Notes: a model not told the origin generated them from the letters alone. A stretch of 64,000 nt of DNA from an uncultured bacterium (GCA_963787185.1 CAWBCC010000011.1:135916-199915); one strand, 5' to 3'. Positions 45,180-60,295 are shown, counted from the stretch's first letter. Made by a program: numbers and translations.

Positions 45180-46318
45180 ATGCACAGCGTCGCAAGGCCT
45201 TTCTTCGCCTTTCGCCGCTTCATCTCGTGCAGCAGGGTGACGAGGATACGCGCCCCCGAGGCGCCTATCGGGTGGCCGATGGCGATGGCGCCGCCGTTCA
45301 CATTGACCCTCGCCATGTCGAGACCGAGCTCCCTGGCGACGGCGAGCGCCTGAGCGGCGAAGGCTTCGTTGGCCTCGATGAGGTCGACATCGTCGAGCCG
45401 CCAGCCGGCGCGTCCCAGCGCGAGACGTACGGCCTCGACGGGGCCCATGCCCATGATCGAGGGGTCGACGCCGCGCCAGGCGTAGGACGCGATGCGCGCC
45501 ATCGGCTCCAGTCCGCGCCGCCCGAGACTGTCTTCGTCGAGCACGAGGAGGGCCGCGGCGCCGTCGTTGATGCCGGACGCGTTGCCCGCCGTCACCGTAC
45601 CCTCGCTCCTGAATGCGCCCTTGAGCTTGGCGAGAGACTCGGGAGTCACGCCCGCCCGGGGAAACTCGTCCCGGTCGAAGGGCACGGGCTCGCCCTTACG
45701 CTGAGGAACCGCGACGGGAACGATCTCATCGTCGAATCGCCCCTCGGCTTGGGCCCGCTCGGTCCTGTTCTGGGAAAGAGCGGCAAAGGCATCCTGGTCG
45801 GCCCGGCTGATCCCGTACTTCACGGCGATGTTCTCGGCGGTGATGCCCATGTGATAATCGTTGAAAATGTCCCAGAGTCCGTCGCTGATCATGGAGTCCA
45901 CGAGACTGCCGTCGCCCATGCGGTAGCCGGTGCGGGCCTGTCTGAGGATGTAAGGCGCCTGACTCATGCTCTCCACGCCGCCGGCTATCACCGCCGCGGC
46001 ATCGCCTGCCTTGACCGCCTGGGCCGCGGCCGCGACGGCGCGCAGCCCCGAACCGCAAACCATGTTGACGGTCTGCGCAGTCTTTTCGACGGGGATGCCC
46101 GACTTGACCAGGACCTGCCTTGCCATGTTTTGTCCCAGCCCCGACTGGAGAACGCAGCCGAGCGTCAGCTCGTCGATATCCCCCGGCTCGATGCCCGTGC
46201 GTTCCAACAGGGCGCGGACTACGGTCCTGCCGAGCTCGACCGCGCCCACCGAGGCCAGTGCTCCGCCGAAGCTGCCCACGGCCGTGCGAATTCCATCCGC
46301 TATGTACACTTCCTTCAT
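45137..46318 (-). CDS. thl: acetyl-CoA C-acetyltransferase (thiolase)
   Basis: 393 aa. [31 protein letters not shown] (active-site Cys) and [20 protein letters not shown] are present. The C-terminal end is [18 protein letters not shown]. Confidence 0.95.
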
Positions 46319-46363
46319 CGCTTTCCTCCTCGAGTGGATTTCAGAACCCTCCGCCGGCCCGCT

Positions 46364-47032
46364 TCACGAGACATCGGAGCAATGGCAGGTGCTCATCACG
46401 ACGACGTCGGCGTCGGTATGTTCGATGATCCATTCGGGTGTGTAGGGCTTGAACCATTCGAGAATGTAGAATTTCCCGCCCATCACTTCGAAGTAGCCGA
46501 TGTCGGTCACCACGAGATTGACCTCGCCGGCCGCAGTGAGCGGCAGGGAGCAGCGGCGTTTCAGCTTGGACGAGCCCGACTTTTCGAAGTGCGTGGTCGC
46601 GCCGATGACGACGCGCGAGCCCGCGACGAGGTCCATAGCGCCGCCCATTCCCGGCACCATCCTGCCGGGGATTTTGTAGTTGGCCAGATTGCCGTGCTGG
46701 TCGACCTCGAGGACGCCCAGGACCGTGTAATCGACGTGCCCCCCGCGGATGATCCCGAAGCTCGTCGCCGAGTCGAAGAAGCAGCCGCCGGGCAGGACCG
46801 AGACGGCCTGACCGCTCGCGTTGGTCAGGTCGGCGTCTTCCTCCCGGAGCGCGGGAAGCGGCCCCAGGCCGAGCATGCCGTTCTCGGACTGGAGCACCAC
46901 CGTGACCTCCGACGGAAGGTAGTTGGCCACGAGGGTCGGCAGTCCGATGCCGAGGTTGACGACGTCGCCCGTCTTGAAGATGTGGGCGATGCGCCGCGCG
47001 ATGATTTCCTTGTTCTCGACGTATTCTATCAT
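46364..47032 (-). CDS. atoA: 3-oxoacid (acetoacetate) CoA-transferase subunit B
   Basis: 222 aa. IARRIAHIFKTGDVVNLGIGLPTLVANYLP...VVLQSENGMLGLGP contains the catalytic-Glu motif SENG. Confidence 0.88.
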   Translation of the reverse strand: MIEYVENKEIIARRIAHIFKTGDVVNLGIGLPTLVANYLPSEVTVVLQSENGMLGLGPLPALREEDADLTNASGQAVSVLPGGCFFDSATSFGIIRGGHVDYTVLGVLEVDQHGNLANYKIPGRMVPGMGGAMDLVAGSRVVIGATTHFEKSGSSKLKRRCSLPLTAAGEVNLVVTDIGYFEVMGGKFYILEWFKPYTPEWIIEHTDADVVVMSTCHCSDVS

Positions 47033-47041
47033 GTCCGTCTC

Positions 47042-47719
47042 CTACTCGGCCGAGCGCACGAGAAAATGCACGAAGATGGAAGGGGTATGGACATCGTCCG
47101 GATCGATCTCGCCGATCTCGACGATCTCCTCGACCTCCGCGATGACCAGGGCGCAGGCCGAGGCCATGATCGGGTTGAAGTTGCGCGCCGTCTTCGAATA
47201 GCGCAGGTTGCCCGCGCGGTCGGCCTTCTTGGCCTTGACGATCGCGATGTCTCCGGGCAGAGGCAGCTCGAGGAGAAATCCCCTGCCCTCGATGGTGAGC
47301 ACCTGCTTGCCCTGTTCGACTTCCGTGCCGAGCCCCGTCGGAGTGAGAAAGCCGCCGAGACCGTTCCCGGACGAGCGAATGCGCTCCGCGAGAGTCCCCT
47401 GCGGGACGAGATCTACTATGGTCTCGCCGGCGTTCATCTGCCGCTGAGTCTCGGGGTTCGTGCCGATGTGCGACACTATGACGCGCGAAAACTGACGATT
47501 CGCGATGAGCGGCGCCACGCCGGTCATCCTACCCGTCTTGGGATCGAAGATCGACGTGTCGTTGGCGACGAGAGTGAGTCCTTTCGTGCCCGACTTCGCC
47601 AGCTCGGCGATGACTCCCTCCGGGGAGCCGCAGCCCAGAAAGCCCCCGATATGGACGGTCATGCCCTCTTTGACCTTGGCCGCCGCCTCCGCGGCCGATA
47701 TCACCGGTTTCCGCACCAC
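47042..47719 (-). CDS. atoD: 3-oxoacid (acetoacetate) CoA-transferase subunit A
   Basis: Start chosen at GTG (47719-47717) preceded by AGGAGGTGGGAA. VVRKPVISAAEAAAKVKEGMTVHIGGFLGCGSPEGVI is typical of subunit A. The 33 extra N-terminal codons of the track ORF run into the repeat region. Confidence 0.85.
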   Translation of the reverse strand: MVRKPVISAAEAAAKVKEGMTVHIGGFLGCGSPEGVIAELAKSGTKGLTLVANDTSIFDPKTGRMTGVAPLIANRQFSRVIVSHIGTNPETQRQMNAGETIVDLVPQGTLAERIRSSGNGLGGFLTPTGLGTEVEQGKQVLTIEGRGFLLELPLPGDIAIVKAKKADRAGNLRYSKTARNFNPIMASACALVIAEVEEIVEIGEIDPDDVHTPSIFVHFLVRSAE

Positions 47720-47757
47720 TTCCCACCTCCTGATCGCACACACATTAGAAAGCAAGA

Positions 47758-48076
47758 CCAAGGGGAGGCACAGAGAAGAGAGAAAAAAGCTCGGTGAACG
47801 AGCGCGCGGAGATTCCAACCGCCATTCGCTCCCTCACCCTTCCCATCTTCCTCCCGTTACTCCTCTTCTCTCTCCCTCTTCCCTCCGCGCCTCTGTGGCC
47901 AATCCCTTCTCCCCTATCGGAACCCTCAAAGAATCAGCCACGGAGACACAGAGAAGAGAAAAAGTTCGATGAGCGAGCGCCGAGACTTCAACAGCATATC
48001 CCCTCCCCCTCATCATCCTCCCACTACTACTCCTCTTCTCTCTCCCTCTTCCCTCCGTGCCTCTGTGGCCAATCCC
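47758..48076. repeat. two tandem copies (A1, A2) of the purine/pyrimidine-asymmetric inverted-repeat element
   Basis: A1 spans about 47762-47899 and A2 spans 47937-48069. Both end ...CCTCTTCTCTCTCCCTCTTCCCTCCG(C/T)GCCTCTGTGGCCAATCCC, with a 170-bp period between the CTCTGTGGCC ends. Linker ...CAAAGAATCAGCCAC joins them. The block lies between atoD and the kamE stop. Confidence 0.9.
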
Positions 48077-48077
48077 C

Positions 48078-48821
48078 TCATGCCCTTGCTTTTTCGACAA
48101 GCTTCTTCACGATGAAGGTCGCAACGTCGTTCGCGTAGGCGCCTCGGCAGAATCCGACATCGTAGCCCAGCTCCACGGCGAGCTTGTTCGAAATGCGCGG
48201 CCCTCCCGCGACGCAGATGTAGCGGCTGCGCTCGCCCCTGGCTTCGAGGAGCTCTATGAACTGGGTCATGTTCCGGATGTGGACATCCTTCTGCGTCACG
48301 ACCTGGGACACGAGTATCGCGTCGGCACCCACCCGTTCGGAGTACTCGATGAGCTTTTCGTTGGGAACCTGCGCCCCAAGATTGTGCGCATCGATCATCG
48401 GATAGCGCTCGAGGCCGAAGTGATGATTGTAGCCCTTCATGTTCATGATGGCGTCGATGCCGACTGTGTGCGCGTCGAAGCCCGTGCAGGCGCCCACCAC
48501 CACGATCTTGCGGCCTATTTGGGAGCGTATGAACTCGTTCACCCCGTCCATCGAGAGAGACTCGTCGGCACAGTGGGCCTCGTCTGCCCTGACCCCTTCG
48601 TAGTCGATGCCGCGTTCGGTCCCGGCGTAGGCGACGTAGAAGGAAAAATCGTCGGCCAGGGCGGCTGAGTGCACGATCTCGCAGTCCTTGAAGCCCCAGC
48701 CGAGAATCATGAGGCGGGCCGCCTCCCTCCCGCGCGGCCCCTCCGGCACGGGAAGAGCGAAAGAAAGCTGTACCTTGCCGTCGTCCAACGTGTCCCCGTA
48801 GGGACGGATCACATTCGCCAT
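48078..48821 (-). CDS. kamE: D-lysine 5,6-aminomutase beta subunit (B12-binding)
   Basis: 247 aa. MANVIRPYGDTLDDGKVQLSF... and the cobalamin-binding segment GACTGFDAHTVGIDAIMNMKG fit KamE, as does its position after kamD. Confidence 0.88.
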   Translation of the reverse strand: MANVIRPYGDTLDDGKVQLSFALPVPEGPRGREAARLMILGWGFKDCEIVHSAALADDFSFYVAYAGTERGIDYEGVRADEAHCADESLSMDGVNEFIRSQIGRKIVVVGACTGFDAHTVGIDAIMNMKGYNHHFGLERYPMIDAHNLGAQVPNEKLIEYSERVGADAILVSQVVTQKDVHIRNMTQFIELLEARGERSRYICVAGGPRISNKLAVELGYDVGFCRGAYANDVATFIVKKLVEKARA

Positions 48822-48859
48822 ATTTCACCTCACAGCATTGCTTCCGGCAGAAAATCCAA

Positions 48860-48986
48860 GCCACAGATGCACCGAGACGGAGAGGGGATAAGAGAGAAAA
48901 GGAACCTGCCCGTCGAGTTCCGACATACGATCCTCTCCCTCTGTGCCTCCGTGGCTTCTCCCCAATTCCCTCTGTGCCTCCGTGGC
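48860..48986. repeat. one inverted copy (B) of the same element, with duplicated terminal motif
   Basis: AATCCAAGCCACAGATGCACCGAGACGGAGAGGGG...CCCTCTGTGCCTCCGTGGC...CCCTCTGTGCCTCCGTGGCC. Its reverse complement aligns with the orientation seen at 57859-57992. A small hairpin GGGGGA-GACT-TCCCCC (49004-49019) lies between it and the kamD stop. Confidence 0.8.
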
Positions 48987-49031
48987 CATCTTTGTTCATA
49001 AAGGGGGGAGACTTCCCCCTTCCCGATCTCC

Positions 49032-50600
49032 TTACGCAAGTCCGACCCCTTTTTTCAGGGCTTCTTCGACCGGATTCCAGTAGTCCGGCCCCTTCTTGAC
49101 GAGGCCGTCGAGCCCCTTGCCGCCGTCCTTGGAGCGCTTGACGTCCGCGAACATGCCCAGCTCGATCGCGTTCATGAGCCCAGTCCGGTCGATCTCTTCC
49201 AGGAATTCCACTGTGCGTTCCAGGACCTCGCGCGCCCTGGTCTTGATTATGCCGCCGTCCTTGAACTCGATCTCGTCCGAGAGACCGGACATGTTGCGCA
49301 TCACGTACTTGGCCGACTCGAGACCGATGAATCTGTCCATCATGAGGGGAGTGTGGATGGCCTCGGTGAGCATGCCGAGGAGATGGATGCCCTGGTTCGT
49401 GGCCTTGGAGACGAAGTTGAACATATTGTCCATGACGAGACCCTGGAAAATGTCGCCCGACATGAACTTGGTGGGCGGCATGTACTTCAGCGGATGATCG
49501 GGGAAAATCTCGCGGGCCATCTGCGCCTGGGCGAGCTCGTAGAGGAACCCGTTTTCGATCGCGGGATCCATCTCCATCGCATGGCCCAGGCCCATGAGCC
49601 GCGCCGGGAGCCCGGCGGCGTAGGCGAAGCGCTCGTTCAGGAGCTGGCTCGCCAGGACGGTGTAGGCTTTTTCGAAGGCGTCGCTCGTGGTGAGGTAGTT
49701 GTCCTCGCCCGTGTTGATCGTGATGCCCGCATAGGCGTCGATCATGCGGCTGAGCTTCTGGTCGACGAAGGTGCGGTACATGTTGATGTCGCGGAAGAGA
49801 ATGCCGTACATCGAGTCGTTGAGCATCATGTCGAGGCGTTCGAGGGCGCCCATCGCGGCGATCTCCGGCATGCAGAGGCCCGAGGCGTAGTTGGTGAGCC
49901 AGATGTAGCGCTTCTCGCGCTCGGCGATTTCGTCGAGGGCCGTGCGCATTATGCGGAAATTCTCCTGGGTGGCGTAGGTGCCGCCGAAACCTTCGGTGGT
50001 GGCGCCGAAGGGAACGTAGTCCAGGAGACTCTGGGCCGTGGTGCGGATGACCGCGATGACGTCGGCTCCTTTGAGCGCCGCGGCCCGGGCCTGCTTCACG
50101 TCCTCGTAGATGTTGCCCGTCGCGACGATGAGGTAGAGGAGCGGCTTGTTGTTGCGGTCCTTGAACTCGGCGAGCTTGGCGTCGCGGCGCTCGCGATTTC
50201 TGCGCACCCGGGAGAGACCCGAGTCGACGAGCTCTTCGGCCCTGCGGCGGATGTCCGCGCGGTCGCCCAGGACCTGGTCCGCGACGCGGTAGCCGGCGGC
50301 GATGCGCGAGTTGAGCTCGGCCGGGCTGCCGCCCGTCTTGGCGAGGGCGTTGACGTACCACACGAGGGCTCCGCCCTCCAGCCTGGCCGGGTCGGCTGCG
50401 CGCAGCTGATCGACCACCAGGTTCGGAACGGGCACGCCCTCCGGGTCGGCGCCGTCCGCGCCCAGGAGGCGCAGGGTCGCGCGCTCCACCGTGACCGTGG
50501 TATGCGCGTCGATGAACTCGAGAACCGGTGCCGCGATGGTCGCGGCGAGCTCTCTAGCCCGGGCTATTCGATCGCCCGGAAGACCGAGTTTCTCCTTCAT
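49032..50600 (-). CDS. kamD: D-lysine 5,6-aminomutase alpha subunit
   Basis: Start chosen at MKEKLGLPGDRIARARELA (ATG 50600-50598). It is 522 aa and closely matches my memory of KamD (TIM-barrel PLP-binding subunit), directly upstream of kamE. Confidence 0.88.
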   Translation of the reverse strand: MKEKLGLPGDRIARARELAATIAAPVLEFIDAHTTVTVERATLRLLGADGADPEGVPVPNLVVDQLRAADPARLEGGALVWYVNALAKTGGSPAELNSRIAAGYRVADQVLGDRADIRRRAEELVDSGLSRVRRNRERRDAKLAEFKDRNNKPLLYLIVATGNIYEDVKQARAAALKGADVIAVIRTTAQSLLDYVPFGATTEGFGGTYATQENFRIMRTALDEIAEREKRYIWLTNYASGLCMPEIAAMGALERLDMMLNDSMYGILFRDINMYRTFVDQKLSRMIDAYAGITINTGEDNYLTTSDAFEKAYTVLASQLLNERFAYAAGLPARLMGLGHAMEMDPAIENGFLYELAQAQMAREIFPDHPLKYMPPTKFMSGDIFQGLVMDNMFNFVSKATNQGIHLLGMLTEAIHTPLMMDRFIGLESAKYVMRNMSGLSDEIEFKDGGIIKTRAREVLERTVEFLEEIDRTGLMNAIELGMFADVKRSKDGGKGLDGLVKKGPDYWNPVEEALKKGVGLA

Positions 50601-50601
50601 G

Positions 50602-52434
50602 TCATTCCCCCATCGGCGGAGGGTTGGACTCTTTCCCCGCCGCATAGATCGATTTCGCCCGTTCCACGATGCCCTCTTCCAGACCGAGGAGGGAGGCTAT
50701 GGCGATGGCGTCGCTCCCCCCCGCGCCTTCGTCTCTCGCCTCTACTATCTCGTAACGCATCATGCCGTTGATCTTCCTGATGCGGTCGGCCAGCGGTTCG
50801 TCCGCCCCGATGATTTTGTCCGCGGCCTCGCGGTCGAGTCCCCGCATGCGCAGGAACCGCGCGCCCGCTGCCCGCCGGATGCCGTGGAAGTGCGTCGAGA
50901 ACACGAACCTGCCCCGGCCGGCGCGCGCGAGGAACTCGATCGCGGCGGAGAGGATCGCCTCGGCTTCGCGCGAGCCCGTCGTGCGGGCGAACTCGTCGAA
51001 GACGATGAATGCGTCCGGCGCTCCGATCCCGGAGGGGCCGACGGCCTCCATGAAACTGCGCATCTCGAAGCCGAATCCCGAAAGGCCGCGATCCTCGCGG
51101 TGGCGATCTTCGTCGCGATGGCGGCCGGCCGTCCCGCCGACATAGACGATGCGCGAGTGAACCGAGCAGGCGAAGCTCGACGCGGGGACGAAGAGGCCCG
51201 CCTGCGCGAGAATCTGGAAGAACAGCAGGCTCTGGAGCGCGACGGTCTTGCCGCCCATGTTCGAGCCGAAGATCACGGCCGCCCTCTCGGCGAGATCGAG
51301 GCCGAGCGGCGTATAGCGCAGGCCGAGCTCTTCGCAGTCCCAGAGGCAGGGCAGGAAACGCCCCGCCGCGACCCCGAGCGAGAGCGAGCCGAGATCCGGC
51401 CGAACGAGGCCGTACTCCCGCGCGAGCCGGGCCCCGGCCAATGCCAGATCGAAGGCGCATATCGCGTCGACGTAGGCGCGCAGATGCCGCGACTCGGCCG
51501 CCGCCGCGGCGGAGATCGAGGCGAGCACCTCTTCCTCGGCCTCGCGCTCCCTGGAAGCGAGCAGCGAGCGCTCCTGCTCGAGTAGGAGAACCCTTTCGCC
51601 GTCACGGAGCCTCACGACGCAGGACCGTCCGTCGTAGGCCTCCACCATGAAGGCGAGCGGGCCCGCCGACCCGGACCCGGCCGCATTTTCCGCCGCCGGC
51701 TCGGCGCAGGCCTCGACGAGCGCCAGGGCTTCCTCGTTGCGGACGAGGAGAAAGTCGCGCCCCGCGAAATCGAGACCGTGGTCGCGGCGGGCGGCGTCGA
51801 GACTGCGGCCGCGCTCCAGCCCGATCGACTCGTCGACCGCCGCGATGCGTCCGCGAATTTCCGGAAGCGAGGCATGGTAGGCGTCGGCGATGAAAAATGT
51901 CTCCGGGTCGGAGCCGCCCAGGTCGAGCCGGGCGGCGAGTTCGGCGGACTCGAAGTCGAGACCGAAAGCGCGCTTCGTCGACTCGTCGACGAGGGCCAGG
52001 ACGGCCCGATAGTTCGAGAGAAACTTCTTGATCTGGAAGAGCTCGACGAGATCGAGGCCGTTCGATTCCCGACGATCGGCGGCGAGGCTTCCGAAGGGGA
52101 GCCTCGGAAGCCTCCTGAGATGGTAGCTCAGGCGGTCGAGCGAGGGCCCCTCGCCCCTGTCCAGAAAAGCGAGCGCCGCCTCCGTGGCGTCGTAGAGCTC
52201 CTCGATCCGGCTCCGGTCGGCGAAAATCCGGCGCTCCTCCTTCGCCTCCTTGCCGTAGGGCGTCAGCGGCGAATAGCGCGACCAGAATTCCTCGACGCGC
52301 GCGAAGCCCCAGGTTTCCCGCGTGGCGGCGCACATCGCGGTGCCGGCCGCCCGCTCCGCGGCGCGGGCCGCGCGCCCTTCGGCGTCGCGGCGACCCGCAG
52401 GTTCCACGCCCGGTCTTCTCCCGGGCTCAGGCAT
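50602..52434 (-). CDS. MutS-domain-V ATPase, putative lysine 5,6-aminomutase reactivase ATPase (KamC-like)
   Basis: 610 aa with a MutS-type Walker A (IFGSNMGGKTVALQSLLFFQILAQAGLFVPA). It sits between kamA and kamD as in lysine-fermentation clusters. The ATG overlaps the upstream stop by 8 nt. The KamC name is from memory of database naming. Confidence 0.7.
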   Translation of the reverse strand: MPEPGRRPGVEPAGRRDAEGRAARAAERAAGTAMCAATRETWGFARVEEFWSRYSPLTPYGKEAKEERRIFADRSRIEELYDATEAALAFLDRGEGPSLDRLSYHLRRLPRLPFGSLAADRRESNGLDLVELFQIKKFLSNYRAVLALVDESTKRAFGLDFESAELAARLDLGGSDPETFFIADAYHASLPEIRGRIAAVDESIGLERGRSLDAARRDHGLDFAGRDFLLVRNEEALALVEACAEPAAENAAGSGSAGPLAFMVEAYDGRSCVVRLRDGERVLLLEQERSLLASREREAEEEVLASISAAAAAESRHLRAYVDAICAFDLALAGARLAREYGLVRPDLGSLSLGVAAGRFLPCLWDCEELGLRYTPLGLDLAERAAVIFGSNMGGKTVALQSLLFFQILAQAGLFVPASSFACSVHSRIVYVGGTAGRHRDEDRHREDRGLSGFGFEMRSFMEAVGPSGIGAPDAFIVFDEFARTTGSREAEAILSAAIEFLARAGRGRFVFSTHFHGIRRAAGARFLRMRGLDREAADKIIGADEPLADRIRKINGMMRYEIVEARDEGAGGSDAIAIASLLGLEEGIVERAKSIYAAGKESNPPPMGE

Positions 52435-53464
52435 GGACTGCCTCGTTGGGATCGAAGCAGATGAACCGCTCGATCGAAGGATCGTGGAGCGCCGCCAGGA
52501 AGCGCTCGCGCGACAGGTCGCGCAGCATGACCACGAAGCCGCCGAACTCGACGCCGTTTCTCACGGCCAAGGCGCGCGTGCGCAGCAGGGCCGCGAGAGC
52601 CGGAGCGTCCAGGAACACCTTCGTGAAGCTCTCGACGAGTATGCTTCGCGCCGAATCGGGTACGCGGGAGAGAGTCTCCGCCGTCAAGGGGCCTTCGATG
52701 ACGGCGAAGGGTTCGGGCAGACCGGCGGCCTTCGCCGAAGCGGCGGCCGAAGCGGCGGCCGAGGCGGCCGAGGCGGTCGGAGCGGCGGCCGAGGCGGCGG
52801 TCGGAGCGCCGGCGGGGACGTCGAGAACCGGCAGCGTGACCAGCCTGTGCAAGCGCCTAAGGTCGCGGCAGCCGCGATCGAGCCCGCCCGGCGAAATGCG
52901 CGCGACGTAAAGGAAGCGAGTGTCCGCGAAAGCGGAGGCCTGCGTTATGCGATTTATGGCCCCGTCGACGAGGATGGTGCGCGCCCAGCGTTCCTCCCGT
53001 ATGCGTTCTATGGCCCAGGCCGCGTGCTCGTTGCACTCGGCGCCGACGAGGACGATCCGGCCGCGCCTTCGCGCCCGGGCTATCGCCAGTCTGCCAAGGG
53101 CCGTCGAGCCGGGCAGCACGTCGAGTATCTCCGGAAGGCAGGAGAAATTCCGCAGGTGCCGCTCCGGGCCGACGAAGACTTCGCCGGGGCGGCACTCCAG
53201 GGCCGGCCGAGAGCCGAGGCGAGGCCCCCCCTCCCCCGCCTGCGCTTTCGAGGATTCTCCCTCGAGGCCCACGGCGAGTATCGCGGGCCTCTCGCCCTCC
53301 TCCCGCACGATGGCGAGGAGTCGGTTCACGAGCGTGGTCTTGCCGCAGCCCTTCTCGGCCCCGGTCACGAAGGTCACGCGACCCAGGAGATCCGAGCCAG
53401 AAAGTTGCACGGAAGCGGGGCTCCGGCCGGTCGCGCGCTCAGCGCGTCTCGTTGCGCGCGGCAC
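52427..53464 (-). CDS. P-loop protein, putative lysine 5,6-aminomutase reactivase subunit (KamB-like)
   Basis: Up to 345 aa. The start is uncertain: GTG at 53464 overlaps kamA, and an alternative GTG lies at 53410. Walker A is FVTGAEKGCGKTTLV. The internal Ala/Ser-rich block comes from imperfect short repeats. Confidence 0.6.
   Translation of the reverse strand: MPRATRRAERATGRSPASVQLSGSDLLGRVTFVTGAEKGCGKTTLVNRLLAIVREEGERPAILAVGLEGESSKAQAGEGGPRLGSRPALECRPGEVFVGPERHLRNFSCLPEILDVLPGSTALGRLAIARARRRGRIVLVGAECNEHAAWAIERIREERWARTILVDGAINRITQASAFADTRFLYVARISPGGLDRGCRDLRRLHRLVTLPVLDVPAGAPTAASAAAPTASAASAAASAAASAKAAGLPEPFAVIEGPLTAETLSRVPDSARSILVESFTKVFLDAPALAALLRTRALAVRNGVEFGGFVVMLRDLSRERFLAALHDPSIERFICFDPNEAVHA
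52733..52815. repeat. imperfect GC-rich roughly 12-bp repeats inside the KamB-like gene, encoding an Ala/Ser/Thr/Pro tract
   Basis: GCCGAAGCGGCG GCCGAAGCGGCG GCCGAGGCGGCC GAGGCGGTCGGAGCGGCGGCCGAGGCGGCGGTCGGAGCG. It is translated on the minus strand as ...PTAASAAAPTASAASAAASAAASAKAAG. Confidence 0.6.
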
Positions 53465-54713
53465 GCACGAGGTTCCTGGGTTCGATGACCTTGTCGACGC
53501 CGTCGAGAAGACGGGCGACGCCGCAGCTCGCCTTGAGCGCCGGTTCGTCCCTGCAGATCCTGCACTGTCCGCAGCTGTCCTCGTAGTGCCGCGGCTCGTC
53601 GTAGGTGGTGATGACTCCCTCGAAGTTGCGCAGGATGACGCGCTTCTCGTTGGAGGTGATGAGATAGCTCGGCATCACGGGGATCTTCCCTCCGCCTCCG
53701 GGCGCGTCGACCACGAAGGTCGGCACCGCCATGCCGGTCGTGTGGCCTCTGAGATTCTCGACGATCTCGATCCCCTTCGAGACGGTGGTGCGGAAGTGTC
53801 CGATGCCCCGCGAGAGATCGCACTGGTAGATGTAATAGGGTTTGACCCGGACGGTCAGCAGCTTCTGGACGAGTTTCTTCATGAGCACCGGGCAGTCGTT
53901 GACGTCGCGGAGCAGGACCGATTGATTGCCCAGCTGAATACCCGCGTCGGCGAGCTTGCGGCAGGCCTCGCCGGCCTCGGCCGTGATCTCGTTCGGATGG
54001 TTGAAGTGCGTATTGACGTACAACGGGTGATATTTTTTCAACATGTTGACCAGATCATCGGTCACCCGCATGGGCATGACGACCGGGGTCCGGGTACCGA
54101 GACGGATGATTTCGACATGGGGAATCGAGCGGAGCCTCGAAATGATACTCTCGAGTCTGTCGTCGGAGAGGACGAAGGGATCGCCGCCCGAGATGAGCAC
54201 GTCGCGGACGACGGGGGTTTTCGCGATATAGGCTATGGCCCTGTCGATGTTCTCCTCGGGCATGTGCATGTCCTCGAAGCCGACCAGACGGCGCCGCGTG
54301 CAATGACGGCAATTCATGGAACAGATATTCGTGACGAGGAGCAGCACCCTGTCGGGATAACGGTGCGTGAGGCCGGGCACCGGCGAATCGACATCCTCGT
54401 GCAGGGGATCCTCCTGGTCGGAGGGATCGTCGAAGGTCTCGGGGAGACGCGGTACCGCCTGCAGTCTGATCGGACAGACCGGATTGTCCTGGTCGATGAG
54501 CGACGCATAGTAGGGAGTGATGGCCATCCGGAAGATAGCGAGAACCTTCTCGACATCCTCTCGAGCACGGTCCGTCAGGGGCACGACTTTGGAAAGAGTC
54601 TCCACGTCCCTGATGTCGTTCTTCATCTGCCAGTGCCAATCGTTCCACTGCTCGGGCGTGACATCCTTGTACAGTGGTATTTTTCTGTAGTCGTGGCTCA
54701 GGTACTCGTGCAT
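53439..54713 (-). CDS. kamA: L-lysine 2,3-aminomutase (radical SAM)
   Basis: Start chosen at MHEYLSHDYRKIPLYKDV (ATG 54713-54711, SD AAAGGAG). The radical-SAM motif is CSMNCRHCTRRR. PYYIYQCD and VPTFVVDAPGGGGKIP are KamA hallmarks. Confidence 0.93.
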   Translation of the reverse strand: MHEYLSHDYRKIPLYKDVTPEQWNDWHWQMKNDIRDVETLSKVVPLTDRAREDVEKVLAIFRMAITPYYASLIDQDNPVCPIRLQAVPRLPETFDDPSDQEDPLHEDVDSPVPGLTHRYPDRVLLLVTNICSMNCRHCTRRRLVGFEDMHMPEENIDRAIAYIAKTPVVRDVLISGGDPFVLSDDRLESIISRLRSIPHVEIIRLGTRTPVVMPMRVTDDLVNMLKKYHPLYVNTHFNHPNEITAEAGEACRKLADAGIQLGNQSVLLRDVNDCPVLMKKLVQKLLTVRVKPYYIYQCDLSRGIGHFRTTVSKGIEIVENLRGHTTGMAVPTFVVDAPGGGGKIPVMPSYLITSNEKRVILRNFEGVITTYDEPRHYEDSCGQCRICRDEPALKASCGVARLLDGVDKVIEPRNLVRAARNETR

Positions 54714-54747
54714 AAACACTCCTTTGGTAGACCGCAGCATTGGCTCG

Positions 54748-55072
54748 AGGCATGGAGGCACGGAGAAGAGAGAAAAGAAATTGAGGAAAGAAGAAAAGCG
54801 GTAATTCCAATTGTGACCCGCCCCCCCGCCCTTTGCCCTCATCCGGCACCATCCTCACTCCTCTCCTCTCTCTCCCTTCCCTCCGTGCCTCTGTGGCATA
54901 TCTCTTCTCTTTCTTACAGGCCCTTCAAAGAATCGAGCCACAGAGGAAGAAGGCAGAAGAAGTCCGATGGGAGCGAGAGCCGAGATTCCAGTTGCAAGCC
55001 GCCCCTTCACCTTATCTTCCTCCCCATTATTCCTCTTCCCTCTTCCTCTTTCCCCCTCCGTGCCCCTGTGGC
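54748..55072. repeat. two tandem copies (C1, C2) of the same element
   Basis: C1 spans 54748-54897 (GAGGCATGGAGGCACGGAGAAGAGAGAAAAG...CTCCCTTCCCTCCGTGCCTCTGTGGC). The linker is ...CAAAGAATCGA. C2 spans 54937-55072 (GCCACAGAGGAAGAAGGCAGAAGAAG...GAGCGAGAGCCGAGATTCCAGTT...CCCCCTCCGTGCCCCTGTGGC). The block lies between the kamA start and the kce stop. Confidence 0.9.
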
Positions 55073-55085
55073 TAATTCCCTTCTT

Positions 55086-55907
55086 CTAATTCTTCAGCTT
55101 GAGGTACTTTCGCACATCGTCGGGTTCGGCGGGGCTCAGATCGGCCTCGCGGGCGATGCGTGCGGCCCGCTCGACGAGTTGGGCGTTGGATGTCGCGAGG
55201 ACGCCCTTCGAGAAGTAGACGTTGTCTTCGAAGCCCACGCGGATCCAGCCGCCGCGGGCGATGGCTCCGTACTGGGCGGGAAGCGAGGCTCGGCCTATGC
55301 CCATGACCGTGAAGTCCGCGCCGGGCGGCATCGCGGACACGAAGGCTTCCAGGGTCGCGACGCTGTAGGGGACGGCTCCCGGCACGTTGAGCACGAATCC
55401 GTAATGCAGCGGCGCCTCGATGAGCCCTTCCTTCAGCAGCATCCGGCTTGCGTACACGTGCCCGAGATCGAAGCACTCGAGCGTGGGCCTGACCTTGTGG
55501 GCGCGGAACTGGGAGGCGAACTCGCGCATGAGGGGCAGCGTGTTGACGATGTAGTCGTTTCCGAAGTTGACGGTGCCGCAGTCGAGACTGGCCATCTCCG
55601 GCTCGAGCTCCACCACGGGGCGGAGCCGCTCCTCGGCCGTGTCGCCCACCGCTCCGCCCGTGGTGATCTCCACGACGATGTCCGTCCTGCGCCGTACCGC
55701 GGCGATCACTTCCTTGAACCGCGCGGGGCTCTGGGTGGGCGCTCCCTCCGGCGTGCGAACGTGAAGGTGGAGAATGGCCGCCCCGGCCTGGCGTGCCTCG
55801 TAGGCGGTCCGAGCCACTTCATCGGGCGTCATCGGAAGCGCCGGGTTCTGCGCCTTGCTCGTCTCCGCCCCCGTGCACGCGCAGGTGATCACTATCTTAC
55901 CGTCCAT
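55086..55907 (-). CDS. kce: 3-keto-5-aminohexanoate cleavage enzyme (BKACE family)
   Basis: 273 aa. MDGKIVITCACTGAETSKAQNPALPMTPDEVARTAYEARQAGAAILHLHVR matches the Kce/BKACE N-terminus, in lysine-fermentation context. Confidence 0.85.
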   Translation of the reverse strand: MDGKIVITCACTGAETSKAQNPALPMTPDEVARTAYEARQAGAAILHLHVRTPEGAPTQSPARFKEVIAAVRRRTDIVVEITTGGAVGDTAEERLRPVVELEPEMASLDCGTVNFGNDYIVNTLPLMREFASQFRAHKVRPTLECFDLGHVYASRMLLKEGLIEAPLHYGFVLNVPGAVPYSVATLEAFVSAMPPGADFTVMGIGRASLPAQYGAIARGGWIRVGFEDNVYFSKGVLATSNAQLVERAARIAREADLSPAEPDDVRKYLKLKN

Positions 55908-55931
55908 AATCGCTCCATCGGAGATGAATAT

Positions 55932-56430
55932 GCCACAGAGACACAGGGCACGGAGAAGAAGCCGAGAGCAGGTTTCGAATCACAGTACGATCCTTTTCAA
56001 TCCTTTACGAAGCGTTTCCAGCCCAAAATTCAATATTAGACCTACCTTCCATCCGCCAAGCTTCAGATAGGTGAGCACCTGCGCATCAAAGACGGGATGC
56101 ATGAGTTGAACCGACTTCAACTCCAGAACTATCGCGTTCTCCACGACGAAATCCGCGCGAAAGCTGCCGTTCAACTGTTGACCCTTGTAGAGGACAGGCA
56201 ATTGAATCTGACGCTGGAAGGCAAGTTCCGCTTCGGCCATTTCAATCGTCATTGCCTCTTCGTATACGGATTCGAGAAGACCCGGCCCAAGCTCCGTATG
56301 AACAGTGAGGGCACAACCGATGATGCGCTCAGTCAGTTCTCGGTGTGGGTATCGTTCTACAGCATCCACTTTTTGCATATTCCTCTTCTCCTCGACGATA
56401 TCTCTTACTCTGTGCCTCCGTGCCTCTCTT
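55932..56430 (-). mobile_element. composite unit: GxxExxY gene bracketed by the left (purine-rich) and right (pyrimidine-rich) halves of the intergenic repeat element
   Basis: The left flank 55932-55982 reads GCCACAGAGACACAGGGCACGGAGAAGAAGCCGAGAGCAGGTTTCGAATCAC. Compare the consensus GCCACGGAGGCACAGAGGAAGAA...GAGCCGAGATTCCAATTAC. The right flank 56379-56430 reads ATTCCTCTTCTCCTCGACGATATCTCTTACTCTGTGCCTCCGTGCCTCTCTTCC and contains an exact 13-mer CCTCCGTGCCTCT of the consensus right end. Mobility itself is inferred, not shown. Confidence 0.45.
55980..56378 (-). CDS. GxxExxY protein (PD-(D/E)XK nuclease-like, PDDEXK_3 type)
   Basis: 132 aa. ...IIGCALTVHTELGPGLLESVYEEAMTIEM...LPVLYKGQQL...FRADFVVENAIVLELKSV... 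carries the G-x-x-E-x-x-Y signature (GLLESVY) and a D...E-x-K-like core (ADFVV...LELK). G+C is lower than in neighbouring genes by eye. The SD GAGGAGAAGAGG is supplied by the repeat half. Confidence 0.8.
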   Translation of the reverse strand: MQKVDAVERYPHRELTERIIGCALTVHTELGPGLLESVYEEAMTIEMAEAELAFQRQIQLPVLYKGQQLNGSFRADFVVENAIVLELKSVQLMHPVFDAQVLTYLKLGGWKVGLILNFGLETLRKGLKRIVL

Positions 56431-56444
56431 CCTGATTGCCTTCT

Positions 56445-57731
56445 CTAATTCGCCGGAAACTTCTTTGCGGTGAGCTCCAGGCTCTCGGCAATGGCCGTGA
56501 GCGCCCTTTCCAGATCCGCGTCCGTATGCCGATGCGCGATGTACCAGTGGTGGAATGGCTGGACGAACAGCCCGCGCCTGATGGTCTGCGTGTAGAAATA
56601 CTCGCGCCGCGCCTTGTAGATCTTTTCGCCGGCGCTGCCCGGACCTTCGCCTGACGCCTGATCGAAGGTGACATAGGGCATCGGCGGTATCCCGGAGACG
56701 GAGCAGGGCACCTTCGAATCGGCCACGATCTTCCGGAGCCGCTCCAGGAAGACCGTACCCCGCGCCCAGATCGAGTCGGGCACCTTCTCGCGCTCAAGGA
56801 TGTCCAGGCACTTCATCGCGGCGACCATCTCGAGGCTGTTGGGGAAGAAGGTGGAGGAGACGAAGACCTTCTTCTCGGCGATCTGCATGAACTCGCGCCT
56901 GCCGGCGACCGCGCTGATGGCGTAGCCGTTGGCCATGGCCTTGCCGAAGGTGCCGAGGTCCGGCGTGACGCCGTAGCGCTCCTGTGCTCCGCCCATCGAG
57001 ACGCGGAAGCCCGTGCGCACTTCGTCGAAGATGAGGACGGCGCCGTGCTTGGTGGCGAGCTCGCGTACGCCCTGGAGATAGCCCGCGGGGGGTGCGACGA
57101 CGGGGTGGGCGTTGGGATGGCCGACCGGCGTGACGATGATGCCGGCCACTCGGCCCTCGTACTCCTCGAGCTTGGCCTCGAGATCGTCCAACTTGCCGTA
57201 CTCGAACTCGACGGTGAGGCCGGTGAAGTCCTCGGGCACGCCGCCCTTCACTTCGACGCACCAGTCGTGCCAGCCGTGGTAGCCGCAGCGGAGGATTACC
57301 TTGCGGTCGGTGCAGCCGCGGGCGATGCGCACGGCGAGGGTGGTCGCGTCGGAGCCGGTCTTGACGAGGATGACCTGTTCCGCGCAGGGCACCAGCTTCG
57401 CGATGCGCTCCTCGAGCCGGTTCTGCACGGGCTGGACGAGGGCGAAGCAGAAGCCCCTGCCCATCTGGGCCGCGACCGCTTCGTTGATCTCCTTCTCTTC
57501 GTAGCCGAGGATGATGGGGCCGTAGCCGCAGAGCATGTCGATGTAGTCGTTGCCGTCGACGTCGACGATGTGGCCGCCGTAGCCCCTGTCGAGGAAGATC
57601 GGATACTCGCCCTGCACGAAGTTGTAGGGTCTGCGGATGCCCATGACGCCGCCCGGGGAAAGCCTCTGGGCCTCGGCGAACATGGCCATGGATTTGTCGA
57701 GCTTGAGCTTGGGGAATTCAGTCGCCGGCAT
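56445..57731 (-). CDS. class-III (PLP) aminotransferase, candidate 3-aminobutyryl-CoA aminotransferase (Kat-like)
   Basis: 428 aa with a glutamate-1-semialdehyde-aminomutase-like fold (YGGHIVDVDGNDYIDMLCGYGPIILGY; PLP-lysine context TFGKAMANGY). It sits between kdd and kce where kal would be expected. SD is AGGAGG. Confidence 0.7.
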   Translation of the reverse strand: MPATEFPKLKLDKSMAMFAEAQRLSPGGVMGIRRPYNFVQGEYPIFLDRGYGGHIVDVDGNDYIDMLCGYGPIILGYEEKEINEAVAAQMGRGFCFALVQPVQNRLEERIAKLVPCAEQVILVKTGSDATTLAVRIARGCTDRKVILRCGYHGWHDWCVEVKGGVPEDFTGLTVEFEYGKLDDLEAKLEEYEGRVAGIIVTPVGHPNAHPVVAPPAGYLQGVRELATKHGAVLIFDEVRTGFRVSMGGAQERYGVTPDLGTFGKAMANGYAISAVAGRREFMQIAEKKVFVSSTFFPNSLEMVAAMKCLDILEREKVPDSIWARGTVFLERLRKIVADSKVPCSVSGIPPMPYVTFDQASGEGPGSAGEKIYKARREYFYTQTIRRGLFVQPFHHWYIAHRHTDADLERALTAIAESLELTAKKFPAN

Positions 57732-57780
57732 ACGGCCTCCTACGTTAAGTCAAAATATCAGCTCTCATATCATCTTCACG

Positions 57781-58163
57781 CTACTCCTCTTCTCTCCCTC
57801 TCCCCTCCGTGCCTCTGTGGCATTCTCTTCTCCTCCCCAACGCCCCTCGAAGAATCAAGCCACGGAGGCACAGAGGAAGAAAGGAAAAGAAGCTTGGTGG
57901 AGCGAGAGCCGAGATTCCAATTACTCTCCCCCCCCATCCTCCCCATCACCCCTCTTCTCTCTCCCTCCCTCTTCCCTCCGTGCCTCTGTGGCATTCTCTC
58001 CGCCTATTTCAGGACCGTTGAAGAATCAAGCCACGGAGGCACAGAGGAAGAAGGGAGAAGAAGCTTGGTGGAGCGAGAGCCGAGATTCCAATTACTCTCC
58101 CCCCCCATCCTCCCCATCACCCCTCTTCTCTCTCCCTCCCTCTCCCCTCCGTGCCTCTGTGAC
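57781..58163. repeat. 2.3 tandem copies (D1 partial, D2, D3) of the same element
   Basis: D1 is the right end only (57781-57821). D2 spans 57859-57992 and D3 spans 58030-58163, both 134 bp and differing at 4 positions. The period is 171 bp. The conserved linker is ...GAAGAATCAAGCCAC. The block lies between the aminotransferase start and the kdd stop. Confidence 0.95.
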
Positions 58164-58175
58164 CTATCCCTTTCC

Positions 58176-59215
58176 TCACTTCACGTACTGCGTCTCGAAG
58201 AGCTTGCGCAGGCCGGGGTTCTCGCGCAGCTCCCAGAGAGTGATCTCCGCGTGATCCCTGGTGTAGCCGTTGCCGATGATCATGGTCACGTCCTTGCCGA
58301 TGCCTTCGGCCCCGAGAGCGGCGCGCGTGAAACTCGTGGCCATCGAGAAGAAGTAGACCATGCCCTCGTCCTTCACGGGAAGAATCGAGGCCATCTCCGA
58401 GCCCTGGATGTTGACGCAGTTGATGCAGAGGTCGACCTCCATCCCGCCGTTGACCGCGAGCACGGCGTCGAGAACCTCGGTGGGCCTGGTGGCGTCGGCG
58501 GTGACGATCTCGTGGGCGAGCTTGAGCCGGGAAAGGGTCTCGCGCGAACGTTCGGAGTGGATGACGGCGATGACGCGGCCGGTGGGGCCTACGCGCTTCA
58601 TGGCCTCGTAGCAGCATAGAATGCCGGACTTGCCGCCCGCTCCGAGAACGAGGACCGACATGCCCGGCTTCACGAGCTTGGCCGTCTGGGCGGGGGCCCC
58701 CGCGACGTCGAGGGCGGCGAGGGCGAGGCCCTCGTCCATGTCGGAGGGAAGTTTGGCGTAAATGCCGGACTCGAAGAGGATGGCCTGGGCCTCCACCTCG
58801 AGTCGGTCGATTTCGGAGTGAACCTTGAGTATCCTGCCGATCTTGAGGGGGGTGAGCAGAGAGATACGAGGCTCGCGATCCTGTCGCCGACCTCGAGGTC
58901 GCGGCCGGCGAGGGCCGAGCCGATCTTGGCCACGGTGCCGATGAGCATGCCGCCCGAGCCGGTGACGGGGTTCTGCTGCTTACCGCGGGCGGCGACGATG
59001 CCCGCGATGATGGACTTGATCTTTTCCACGTCGCCCGCAGCCTCTTCTTCGATCTGAGTGAAGGAAGCGGAGTCTATGTTGAGCGCGGTGACGTCGAGGA
59101 GGATCTCGTTGTCGTAGACGATCGACATGTCGTTGTTGAGCTTCTGCGCCGTCTGCGGCATTGCGCCCGCCGGCTCGACGACTCGGTGCGTACCATACTT
59201 GTTGCCCATCGGCAT
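58176..59215 (-). CDS. kdd: L-erythro-3,5-diaminohexanoate dehydrogenase, interrupted by an apparent 1-nt frameshift (possible pseudogene or sequencing error)
   Basis: The N-terminal frame (MPMGNKYGTHRVVEPAGAMPQTAQKLNNDMSIVYDNEILLDVTALNIDSASFTQ...GDRIASLVSL) turns Ser/Pro/Arg-rich after codons over 58847-58870. The second frame reads ...LTPLKIGRILKVHSEIDRLEVEAQAILFESG...GAGGKSGILC... to the stop at 58176. The joint is at the G6 (coding-strand C6) run 58847-58852, and one extra C restores a roughly 346-aa protein. Confidence 0.75.
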
Positions 59216-59301
59216 GGCGATCCTCCTTCGAGCTCGTGCTGCGCTGCTGCGGCGAGTTGCGCGGACTTCGAGGCCCGCCTCTGCGCTGTACTGATTGTAC
59301 T

Positions 59302-59330
59302 CTTATACCCCGCAAAACGAGAGCCGTCAA
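59302..59330 (-). promoter_or_regulatory. candidate sigma70-type promoter of the lysine-fermentation operon
   Basis: The minus strand reads TTGACG (59330-59325), 17-nt spacer, TATAAG (59307-59302). It lies about 85 nt upstream of the kdd ATG, whose SD is GAAGGAGGA. Confidence 0.4.
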
Positions 59331-59341
59331 GGTACAATAAT

Positions 59342-59355
59342 TCGATATATATCGA
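59342..59355. promoter_or_regulatory. perfect 14-bp palindrome TCGATATATATCGA just upstream of the -35 box
   Basis: TCGATATATATCGA lies at 59342-59355, 11 nt beyond the -35 hexamer of the candidate kdd promoter, in the divergent intergenic region. Confidence 0.3.
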
Positions 59356-59480
59356 TACAGTCGTAGTTTAGGAATAGAGTACAGTTTCTGAAATCTGTCT
59401 CGCTGTTATGGGGCACCGAAGACTACACCGCCGTCTTTCTCCATAGTATACTCAGTCATCTTTGCGAGAGAGGAGTTCAT

Positions 59481-59708
59481 ATGCCCGGCCCCAAGAAGAC
59501 CGATCCCAAGGCGCCCAAGTTCCTGGAGTTCACCATCACCGACCCGGAGGGAAGACTCTGGGGCAAACTCATCGCCCAGGAAAAGCAATTCTCATCCGGC
59601 TCCATCGGCTTCTATTGCAATGGAAAAGTCGAGAATCCCGAGAGCCACGAACGTTACCAGGCGGGTCTGAATCTCACGTTGATCGGCAGCAAGCCCGACC
59701 AGAGCTGA
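59481..59708 (+). CDS. hypothetical small protein (75 aa)
   Basis: ATG is preceded by GAGAGGAG at good spacing. A candidate -10 TATACT lies at 59447-59452. The protein is MPGPKKTDPKAPKFLEFTITDPEGRLWGKLIAQEKQFSSGSIGFYCNGKV.... I recognised no family. Confidence 0.55.
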   Translation: MPGPKKTDPKAPKFLEFTITDPEGRLWGKLIAQEKQFSSGSIGFYCNGKVENPESHERYQAGLNLTLIGSKPDQS

Positions 59709-59787
59709 AGAGGAGCCGCCGCGTTATTGACCATTTCCCGATTCGCCCTTATAGTTTCGGCTATTATTTTGTCAGGAGGCTATGACG

Positions 59788-60243
59788 ATGGCGGATTCTA
59801 TGGCCGATAAGCTGAGAGCGCTCGACAAACAGAGAGCCGAAATACTGGATACGTTCATAAAAGAGCGGCAGGGACTCATCAAGCAGAAGAAAGCGGAATT
59901 GGCCAAACTCGAAGACGAACTGCATGCGGTTCTTTCTCCCGAGTCCGCGGGGAGAAGAAAAAATACTCCCGGGACCGCAAAGAAAGCCGCGAAAGCGAAG
60001 AGCGCATCGAAAGCGTCGAAGCTGCCTCCCGAGTTCACCGCCAAAGAGTTGGCCGGAATCGTCGAGGGCCTGAAGGAAGGCATCAAGGAAGCCGCCGAAC
60101 TGAAGCCCTTCCTGATGAAGGGCCGTAGGATCCCCCTGATCAGCAAGGCGCTCGAGGCCTATAAGACCTTGGGCCCCAAGGATCGAACGGCGGAAGGGCT
60201 CGAAGCCGCGCTGAAGGGCCTGAAGGCGAAGAAGCCGGAATAG
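59788..60243 (+). CDS. hypothetical Lys/Ala-rich coiled-coil protein (about 151 aa), possibly nucleoid-associated
   Basis: The ORF opens at ATG 59782, but the second ATG at 59788 has better spacing to AGGAGG (59774-59779). It has an N-terminal heptad-like helix (DKLRALDKQRAEILDTFIKERQGLIKQKKAELAKLEDEL) and a basic tract GRRKNTPGTAKKAAKAKSASKASK. A strong terminator follows. Confidence 0.6.
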   Translation: MADSMADKLRALDKQRAEILDTFIKERQGLIKQKKAELAKLEDELHAVLSPESAGRRKNTPGTAKKAAKAKSASKASKLPPEFTAKELAGIVEGLKEGIKEAAELKPFLMKGRRIPLISKALEAYKTLGPKDRTAEGLEAALKGLKAKKPE

Positions 60244-60264
60244 CCGTCCCGAAGCGGCGACGAT

Positions 60265-60295
60265 GCCCCGCCCGCGAAGACGAGCGGGGCTTTTT
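60265..60295 (+). terminator. rho-independent terminator
   Basis: GCCCCGC (60265-60271) pairs with GCGGGGC (60284-60290), and the stem is followed by TTTTT (60291-60295). It lies 21 nt after the stop at 60243. Confidence 0.8.

Follow-up and report, generated by a model that had tools for sequence, protein, structure and literature searches.

Gene-less palindromic elements in a Rectinemataceae lysine-fermentation operon and their probable kinship with GxxExxY nuclease cassettes

The operon and its hairpin elements

We analyzed a set of palindromic elements, each about 134 bp long, in a 64,000-nt stretch of DNA from an uncultured bacterium (GCA_963787185.1 CAWBCC010000011.1:135916-199915; hereafter the window), whose host lineage is Rectinemataceae (metagenome-assembled genome GCA_052139715.1). 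The elements lie in a lysine-fermentation operon of about 14 kb, with all genes on the minus strand in the order kdd, class-III aminotransferase, kce, kamA, a kamB-like gene, kamC, kamD, kamE, two CoA-transferase subunit genes and thiolase. All copies in the window (Table 1) fall within 10.4 kb, in five gaps of this one operon, and one gap holds a longer form in which the element arms enclose a gene for a small nuclease of the GxxExxY family. We consider it probable that the short elements are gene-less members of a palindromic family resembling REPINs (hairpins of repetitive extragenic palindromic, or REP, sequences) and miniature inverted-repeat transposable elements (MITEs), and that the promoter-less nuclease cassette is the full-length form of this family.

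Every copy listed in an initial annotation of the window was found where it had been placed. That annotation had seen none of the diagnostic strings in the other 50 kb or so, and by motif counts and a profile search nothing similar occurs in the 54 kb outside the element stretch. Across the 64-kb window, the end motif CCTCCGTGCCTCTGTGGC matched 13 times with up to three mismatches, always within 47882-58163, against 0.10 matches expected, and 17 of the 18 matches to the two-unit pattern CACRGAGNCACRGAG fell inside the element stretch (1.8 expected). An nhmmer profile built from six copies recovered those six, the partial copy D1 (57824-57779) and copy B, and no further copies in the window at E≤1e-3. 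Tandem pairs with a period of 170-175 bp occur in three gaps; Tandem Repeats Finder reported a 171-bp period at 57787-58161, and a repeat search gave copy spacings of 170, 171 and 175, in line with the 170-171 bp first described. Copies D2 and D3, which do differ at just 4 of 134 positions as originally counted, are a recent tandem duplicate, and C2 (about 77% identity) and C1 (about 70%) are older copies. Between gaps, A2 is 84% identical to D2, A1 is 80% identical to D2, and C2 is 78% identical to A2; A2 and its neighbor A1 share 82%. Since A2 is equally close to D2 and to its own neighbor, copies have moved, or undergone conversion, from one gap to another over distances of up to 10 kb, which agrees with the repeated rounds of spread that had been proposed.

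Each element has the architecture of one long imperfect hairpin, as had been suggested, and single copies fold with predicted energies of -51 to -71 kcal/mol (z -1.4 to -5.3). Direct reading of the 18-nt ends gives the pairing described before, with 16 Watson-Crick pairs, one G-T and one mismatch, which is A-C, and the gene-less copies share a common core, GGAATCTCGGCTCTCGC. Conserved extensions, a purine-rich one on the 5' side (GGAGAAGGGATWK) and another on the 3' side (TTGATTCTTYGAGG), make the elements somewhat longer than first stated; because these extensions also accompany single copies (B, and L062 of another Rectinemataceae genome), what had been called a linker between tandem copies belongs to the element itself. 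Elements follow the stop codons of kamE, kce and kdd at 8, 13 and 12 nt, matching the 8-13 nt reported earlier, and these distances shrink to 0-1 nt once the 5' extension is counted. Copy D3 with both extensions spans 58016-58175 and adjoins the kdd stop codon (58176-58178), the 5' extension of C2 adjoins the kce stop codon (55086-55088), and A2 starts directly after the kamE stop codon (48078-48080). In every gap, the elements have a stop codon on one side and an intact ribosome-binding site on the other. Across the linker, the partial copy D1 can pair with the D2 3' arm. In tandem arrays generally, the 3' arm of one copy can also pair with the 5' arm of its successor, and this second register is as strong as the first (z -6.5 for the D3/D2 junction, 57963-58059).

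Copy B had been read as inverted, and its orientation had been used as an argument against an operon-specific motif. That argument fails, since the inversion is not supported: copy B has about 65% identity to the other copies in either orientation, its profile match (48990-48853, E=3e-5) is on the minus strand like those of the others, and no match was obtained in the opposite orientation. The inverted reading comes down solely to the placement of A and G at two end positions. In copy B the 5' end motif is duplicated (48938-48955 and 48969-48986). A separate small hairpin, GGGGGGAGACTTCCCCC at 49003-49019, follows the kamD stop codon ahead of copy B and is unrelated to the elements described here. 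Three independent Logan contigs (L123, L124 and L127) all end at window position 57878, inside D2, indicating that these repeats break short-read assemblies.

Table 1. Elements and nuclease gene of the lysine-fermentation operon (window coordinates)
Feature	Coordinates	Strand	Description
Copy D3	58030..58163	-	Gene-less hairpin; RNA fold -71.5 kcal/mol, z -5.1
Copy D2	57859..57992	-	Tandem partner of D3, 171-bp period, 97% identity
Copy D1, partial	57779..57824	-	5' purine arm and array only, without 3' arm
Full-length cassette, aminotransferase/kce gap	55932..56430	-	5' array, purine-rich leader, GxxExxY open reading frame, 3' untranslated region, 3' array
GxxExxY gene, 132 aa, minimal PD-(D/E)XK nuclease	55980..56378	-	PF13366, TIGR04256
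Copy C2	54937..55072	-	First element of kce/kamA gap
Copy C1	54748..54897	-	Second element of kce/kamA gap; most diverged full copy, about 70% identity to the rest
Copy B, kamD/kamE gap	48860..48986	-	Divergent; same orientation as the others by profile search
Copy A2	47937..48069	-	First element of kamE/CoA-transferase gap
Copy A1	47762..47899	-	Second element of kamE/CoA-transferase gap; 3' end motif degenerate

The GxxExxY cassette and the heptamer arrays that bound it

The copy described initially as split is real in both of its arms (56379-56430 and 55932-55982); what had been missed is that the stretch they enclose is an intact open reading frame (ORF) of 132 codons in operon orientation. 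The 5' array of this resident cassette lies at about 56406-56430, and its 3' array at 55932-55955, ending in GTGGC. The encoded protein matched PF13366 (PDDEXK_3) over the full model (E=7e-40, 136.5 bits against a cut-off of 22) and TIGR04256 with 141.7 bits against a cut-off of 35. The GxxExxY motif is G33-L-L-E36-S-V-Y39 and the PD-(D/E)XK residues are D76...E86-L-K88; the motif and residues D76, E86 and K88 show no variation among 40 homologues. An AlphaFold model (pLDDT 93.6) has a PD-(D/E)XK-like fold. No solved homologue, PADLOC defense-system model or PHROG phage family matched the nuclease, and the attempt to derive a function from its structure gave no lead, its neighbors in the PDB being only generic PD-(D/E)XK enzymes.

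The closest homologues of the nuclease (59-75% identity) are all encoded in the same aminotransferase/kce gap, and include orthologous cassettes in L339, L342 and L345. Among these orthologous cassettes, nonsynonymous divergence is low (pN 0.18-0.31) and synonymous divergence is saturated (pS 0.73-0.88), indicating that the protein is under purifying selection. Their arrays are still perfect and their leaders have diverged.

To characterize the boundaries of GxxExxY genes in general, we used a sample of 80 such genes from metagenomes, picked by protein similarity alone, 78 of which had enough flanking sequence. The genes are linked to arrays of a heptamer: 45 of the 78 had at least two CRCNGAG units within about 195 nt upstream together with at least two CTCNGYG units within 150 nt downstream, compared with a heptamer background of 0.2 per 195 nt, and the opposite arrangement was rare. 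The modal number of units per cassette arm is three (two in the window elements); arrays of three CACAGAGG units are one form and CGC-type arrays another. In the usual layout, a boundary such as TCAC stands 1-25 nt after the upstream stop codon, followed by three heptamers with spacers of 1-4 nt. A short leader rich in purines then precedes the ORF, after which come three heptamers in inverted orientation, GTGA and the next start codon. Neighboring genes were co-oriented in 23 of 29 cases upstream and 21 of 26 downstream, by a crude test based on long ORFs, and upstream stop codons mostly lay 1-25 nt from the 5' arm. Among cultured bacteria, Bacteroides finegoldii carries a cassette with canonical arms between radA and a gene for an FAD protein, and in the fatty-acid synthesis operon of Sphingomonas parapaucimobilis NZ_CP155749.1 (L336 1471-1899) the GxxExxY gene stands between fabD and fabG-acpP-fabF, with CGCGAAG variant units inside the same TTCAC...GTGAA boundary. 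The upstream array can be read in frame as HRGTEAQR-like peptides (L045, L059, L077, L088 and L104; database proteins of 140-167 aa), so that in-frame arrays probably inflate the predicted N-termini of some annotated GxxExxY proteins with false extensions.

Across 20 cassettes, the ORF-flanking arms are 86% complementary, most mismatches falling on the fourth position of a heptamer or within a spacer, and there is no excess of G.U over A.C (19 against 18). This pattern indicates that the heptamer sequence, rather than pairing alone, is what is conserved, and it suggests sequence-specific recognition. GxxExxY was the only ORF that recurred between arrays among the sites examined; a search for other cargo there, including four-helix-bundle proteins and toxin-antitoxin pairs, found nothing else recurrent. 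The sole non-GxxExxY content seen was a hicA/hicB-like toxin-antitoxin pair between two heptamer hairpins (L082, about 3423-4093). No rRNA gene was found in the window or adjoining 20 GxxExxY genes. GxxExxY genes were present in 8 of 72,556 plasmid records, and had no match in 50,697 GenBank phage records.

Gene-less hairpins with these ends are spread across a wide range of bacteria. In a scan of one genome per species, the 18-mer was found at 120 loci or more, with about 70 matches expected by chance in 596 Gb; the loci include Acidobacteriota, Verrucomicrobiota, Planctomycetota, Chloroflexota, several classes of Pseudomonadota, Myxococcota, Gemmatimonadota, Bacteroidota, Spirochaetota and others. 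Most of the loci listed have a partner arm 50-200 bp away and visibly consist of repeated units. Only a few of the listed hairpin sites enclose an ORF, and the recurring one is GxxExxY. Hairpin doublets, and several copies per contig, were seen in contig-level data. Three-unit arrays also occur in at least 120 contigs (L216-L335) of the IMG/VR viral collection, which may represent host DNA in prophage calls. Locus L062 scored 59 bits against the window profile and lies between co-directional genes that are not involved in lysine fermentation, and an alphaproteobacterial element scored 36 bits over its full length. The window elements are a local subfamily of these cross-phylum gene-less hairpins. 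Neither the window nor any of 38 related loci matched an Rfam 15 family at its gathering score; matches to miRNA precursors under permissive settings were discarded as sub-threshold noise of a kind expected from any long hairpin. The 18-mer and array strings are not printed in the searchable open literature (subscription literature lies outside that scope), and such mentions of GxxExxY or PF13366/PDDEXK_3 as could be seen in part of the open literature were not in the context of arrays, so we provisionally regard the heptamer-array family as undescribed.

Turnover, transcript structure and competing explanations

Comparison with orthologous operons, which the initial annotation had suggested, revealed polymorphism in how the gaps are filled. 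Among related operons with 78-88% identical Kce, L129 and L130 have only 10 bp between aminotransferase and kce and 15 bp between kamD and kamE; L131-L133 carry a frameshifted GxxExxY gene in the aminotransferase/kce gap; and L134 and L135 are without the aminotransferase and have an intact cassette between kamA and kamB instead. A different repeat, rich in G+C (..CTCGCTCCGGCCTCCTCGGC..CTGCGGKGGCCTCCGC..) and found at L129 6653-6880 and at L131 7862-8011 and 16583-16977, fills the kdd/aminotransferase and kamD/kamE gaps of these relatives, indicating that the operon gaps attract more than one repeat family.

The heptamer type varies in a concerted manner. It is CAC at every position in the window and in L339, and CGC at every position in L342 and L345, a grouping that contradicts that of the flanking aminotransferase and Kce proteins. 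In the window, L339 and L342, gene-less neighbors are of the same type as the cassette beside them, and L131 and L134 are mixed. In a sample unbiased for type, 164 of 185 arrays were uniform; of 13 contigs that held two separate elements or more, 12 were uniform where 5.5 were expected (p=0.0004); and the CAC fraction per cassette was bimodal, with nothing between 0.3 and 0.7 in 59 cassettes. GC content was considered as a cause of heptamer type and did not explain it. Uniformity of type within a genome is the outcome that would follow if a master copy were amplified or if gene conversion were still going on, and it argues against static relics. The two forms also share the end of the cassette leader: its last 15 nt or so before the ORF, through to the start codon, reappear in a constant position in C2 (14/15), A1, A2 and D2 (p 0.008-0.04), and also in L342 (p 0.003), as scored against mononucleotide shuffles; similarity between the gene-less core and the 3' untranslated region (UTR) of the cassette is weaker than that of the leader. 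The gene-less copies may be cassettes that lack the ORF, or the ORF may have entered such a hairpin; the data fit both.

The reading best supported by these results is that the family behaves as selfish, amplifying DNA and is not an operon-specific motif. This sustains the initial proposal of a dispersed REP/MITE-like family, given the member at L062, the end arrays in many phyla and the differently filled gaps of related operons. In tight operons it lands or persists in the one place that is tolerated, after a stop codon and ahead of the following ribosome-binding site; it multiplies within its genome as a genome-specific sequence type, and it is gained, lost or replaced between related lineages. 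Because empty gaps measure only about 10-15 nt from stop to start, the interval between stop codon and ribosome-binding site would be the only harmless point of insertion, and the simplest explanation of the proximity to stop codons is therefore selection. In this reading, the GxxExxY nuclease would recognize the heptamer arrays and drive movement or copying, and gene-less copies would be served in trans, in the manner proposed for REPINs and their RAYT transposases. The elements would be co-transcribed and fold into imperfect RNA hairpins of about 50 bp, plausible sites for RNase III or barriers to exonucleases that could segment the 14-kb transcript.

More tentatively, and with less confidence than we place in the kinship of short elements and cassette, we can postulate that GxxExxY genes are the protein part of an undescribed, cross-phylum selfish element, in which the nuclease would recognize arrays of three CRCNGAG units and spread both the cassettes and a much larger number of gene-less hairpins. 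Such an element would form a partnership like that of REPINs and RAYTs, would reside in the stop-proximal gaps of housekeeping operons, and would have its type homogenized in each genome.

Several observations weigh against our interpretation. The structural neighbors of the protein are generic, with TM scores of about 0.5 (Cas4, lambda exonuclease and tRNA splicing endonuclease). All ten copies are clustered in a single operon and the remaining 54 kb has none, which is odd for a freely transposing element; local duplication combined with gene conversion could produce such a cluster, and local action from the resident cassette is another possibility. Heptamer type did not follow protein clade (p=0.16), contrary to what simple co-evolution of protein and site predicts, and no column of the protein stood out as a determinant of specificity. 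Seven near-identical contigs of the same organism were identical at the elements and showed no presence/absence differences. We found no direct repeat that could be a target-site duplication, either at the element borders or in comparisons of filled and empty sites, which are diverged; the nearest empty sites are in genomes with about 12% protein divergence, at which the exact insertion boundary is not definable. Finally, the leader and 3' UTR similarities are short and purine-rich, and mononucleotide shuffles were their only control.

The strongest competitor is that the hairpins are exapted intercistronic RNA structures, retained for differential stability, processing or translation of segments of the transcript. 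This explanation is compatible with our interpretation as to origin, and we regard it as a possibility of some substance that is nonetheless doubtful. Parallels are the REP/BIME elements in malEFG and the Correia elements, which RNase III cuts; elements of this sort change the stability of mRNA. The window elements fold strongly on the mRNA strand. In all seven copies, folding of the sense RNA is favored over that of the antisense RNA by 13-19 kcal/mol, with 6-11 G.U pairs against 0-3. When the seven copies are aligned, 91% of cells are paired, compared with 57-61% in slid controls, and ten pairs have changed on both sides, compared with 5.5 in shuffles. The kce/kamA gap contains a purine-first, pyrimidine-second hairpin in every relative examined, and the placement of the elements between stop codon and intact ribosome-binding site also suits such a role. 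On the other side, the strand bias is weak as proof of RNA function because the seven copies are paralogous and may have inherited it once, because it is absent from the ORF-flanking arrays, and because only 4 of 7 elements in relatives show it. Two gaps are empty in the L129/L130 operon, and purine and pyrimidine tracts pair by virtue of composition, as the level of about 60% in slid controls demonstrates. The elements add no excess of terminator-like sites: a role as intrinsic terminators was rejected, as 10 such sites were counted in 44000-60500 where 11.2 were expected. Only the core of A1 has a 5-bp stem with T6, and what follows the element 3' ends is TTGATTCTTC. Matches to promoter consensus sequences were likewise not in excess. 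The stability and pairing results favor, though weakly, a hairpin that has a role in the transcript.

It is improbable that each gene-less element is a cassette that decayed in place, having lost its ORF independently and never spread as a short unit. The frameshifted ORF in L131-L133 and the piece of leader up to the start codon that gene-less copies keep are what decay would leave behind. However, copies in different gaps are of one size and similar over their full length (A2-D2 84%, A1-D2 80%, C2-A2 78%), their common core is at best weakly similar to the 3' UTR of the resident cassette, tandem pairs recur in three gaps, and a member exists at an unrelated locus of another genome.

We give very little credence to the idea that the elements act as DNA through non-B structures (cruciforms, H-DNA or G-quadruplexes) that affect replication, recombination or transcription. 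They are long imperfect palindromes with purine and pyrimidine arms, and G-quadruplex motifs are present on the sense strand of C1, D2 and D3; yet these motifs are inconsistent, appearing in 3 of 7 copies, and the window as a whole has fewer than shuffled sequences (9 against 14.3), for which reason the G-quadruplex idea was rejected, and the many G.T and A.C positions in the stems would weaken cruciforms. Least probable of all is a local, operon-specific tandem duplication with no relatives elsewhere, the case that would have overturned the initial annotation: the confinement of the window copies to 10.4 kb and the recent D2/D3 duplicate are consistent with it, but it is contradicted by the subfamily member at a non-lysine locus of another Rectinemataceae genome, by end arrays across phyla and around GxxExxY genes, and by copies in separate gaps that are as similar as neighbors.

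Other features of the window were noted in passing. The kdd gene (58176-59216) is one base short at about 58857 relative to L121 (same organism, 99.99% identity) and is thereby split into two ORFs, reflecting either an assembly error or a recent pseudogene. At 44372-45179, a 129-bp unit is repeated 6.3 times with 99% identity and comprises the last 13 or so thiolase codons and about 85 nt downstream; it folds no better than shuffled sequences (z about -0.9). Tandem repeats of 27 bp at 20700-20865 (6.2 copies, 96%) and 60941-61046 (3.9 copies, 83%) possibly encode 9-residue repeats in coding sequence.

Significance and comparison with known systems

The GxxExxY family (TIGR04256) has thousands of members of unknown function, and gains here a concrete genomic setting and a candidate substrate. 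If the nuclease does mobilize the arrays, it would be a second, independent case of a small gene with a population of non-autonomous hairpins and, unlike REPIN-RAYT, one in which a single sequence motif spans most bacterial phyla. For the operon itself, the five gaps consist almost wholly of elements, and expression of kdd, aminotransferase, kce, kamA-E and CoA-transferase is therefore likely to be shaped by them.

The closest parallel is that of REP sequences and REPINs with their RAYT genes (Bertels and Rainey 2011, PMC3116915). In both systems, inverted pairs of short extragenic palindromes form hairpins (many copies per genome in REP; doublets and several copies per contig here), the type is specific to each genome, a single small gene is flanked by inverted repeats, and gene-less copies far outnumber gene-bearing ones. 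However, the gene flanked here encodes a PD-(D/E)XK protein of about 125 aa and not a RAYT, that is, a HUH Y1 transposase of the IS200/IS605 type, and for this reason the family falls outside REPIN-RAYT. The ends are also arrays of two to four 7-nt units, compared with one palindrome of about 20 nt in REP; the same heptamer occurs across phyla, whereas REP sequences are lineage-specific; the GxxExxY gene is often present in multiple copies; and mobilization by its product is a conjecture.

Bacterial MITEs that are co-transcribed with their neighbors, such as Correia (CREE), ERIC, RUP and BOX (PMC2229807, PMC3184786), resemble the window elements in being non-coding units of 100-170 bp with terminal inverted repeats, located in operon gaps and forming long RNA hairpins. 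The 18-nt ends, with their 16 Watson-Crick pairs, are terminal inverted repeats of this sort. MITEs share their ends with an autonomous parent; here the ends are common to the GxxExxY cassette, the leader similarity runs up to the start codon (p 0.003-0.04), that of the 3' UTR is weak, and GxxExxY is not a known transposase. The elements differ from MITEs in that no target-site duplication and no parent insertion sequence with a known transposase were found, and in their heptamer-array ends and cross-phylum range.

Intervening sequences of 23S rRNA that contain an ORF, as in Leptospira and Coxiella (PMC4990558), also place a gene of about 120 codons within a transcribed unit, enclosed by inverted repeats that form a stem; they are regarded as selfish, and their stem is a substrate of RNase III. 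They differ in being located in rRNA helix 25 or 45 instead of an mRNA operon gap, and in encoding the four-helix-bundle protein S23p rather than a PD-(D/E)XK nuclease. Like free-standing homing endonuclease genes, the cassette is a small, promoter-less gene between conserved, co-oriented genes, with the nuclease as the likely agent of spread, and like integron cassettes it is bounded by a folded imperfect palindrome, as with attC. Unlike in these two systems, neither a conserved target (gene or site) nor an integrase with attI is present, the boundaries are conserved heptamers on both sides, and GxxExxY is the sole recurrent cargo.

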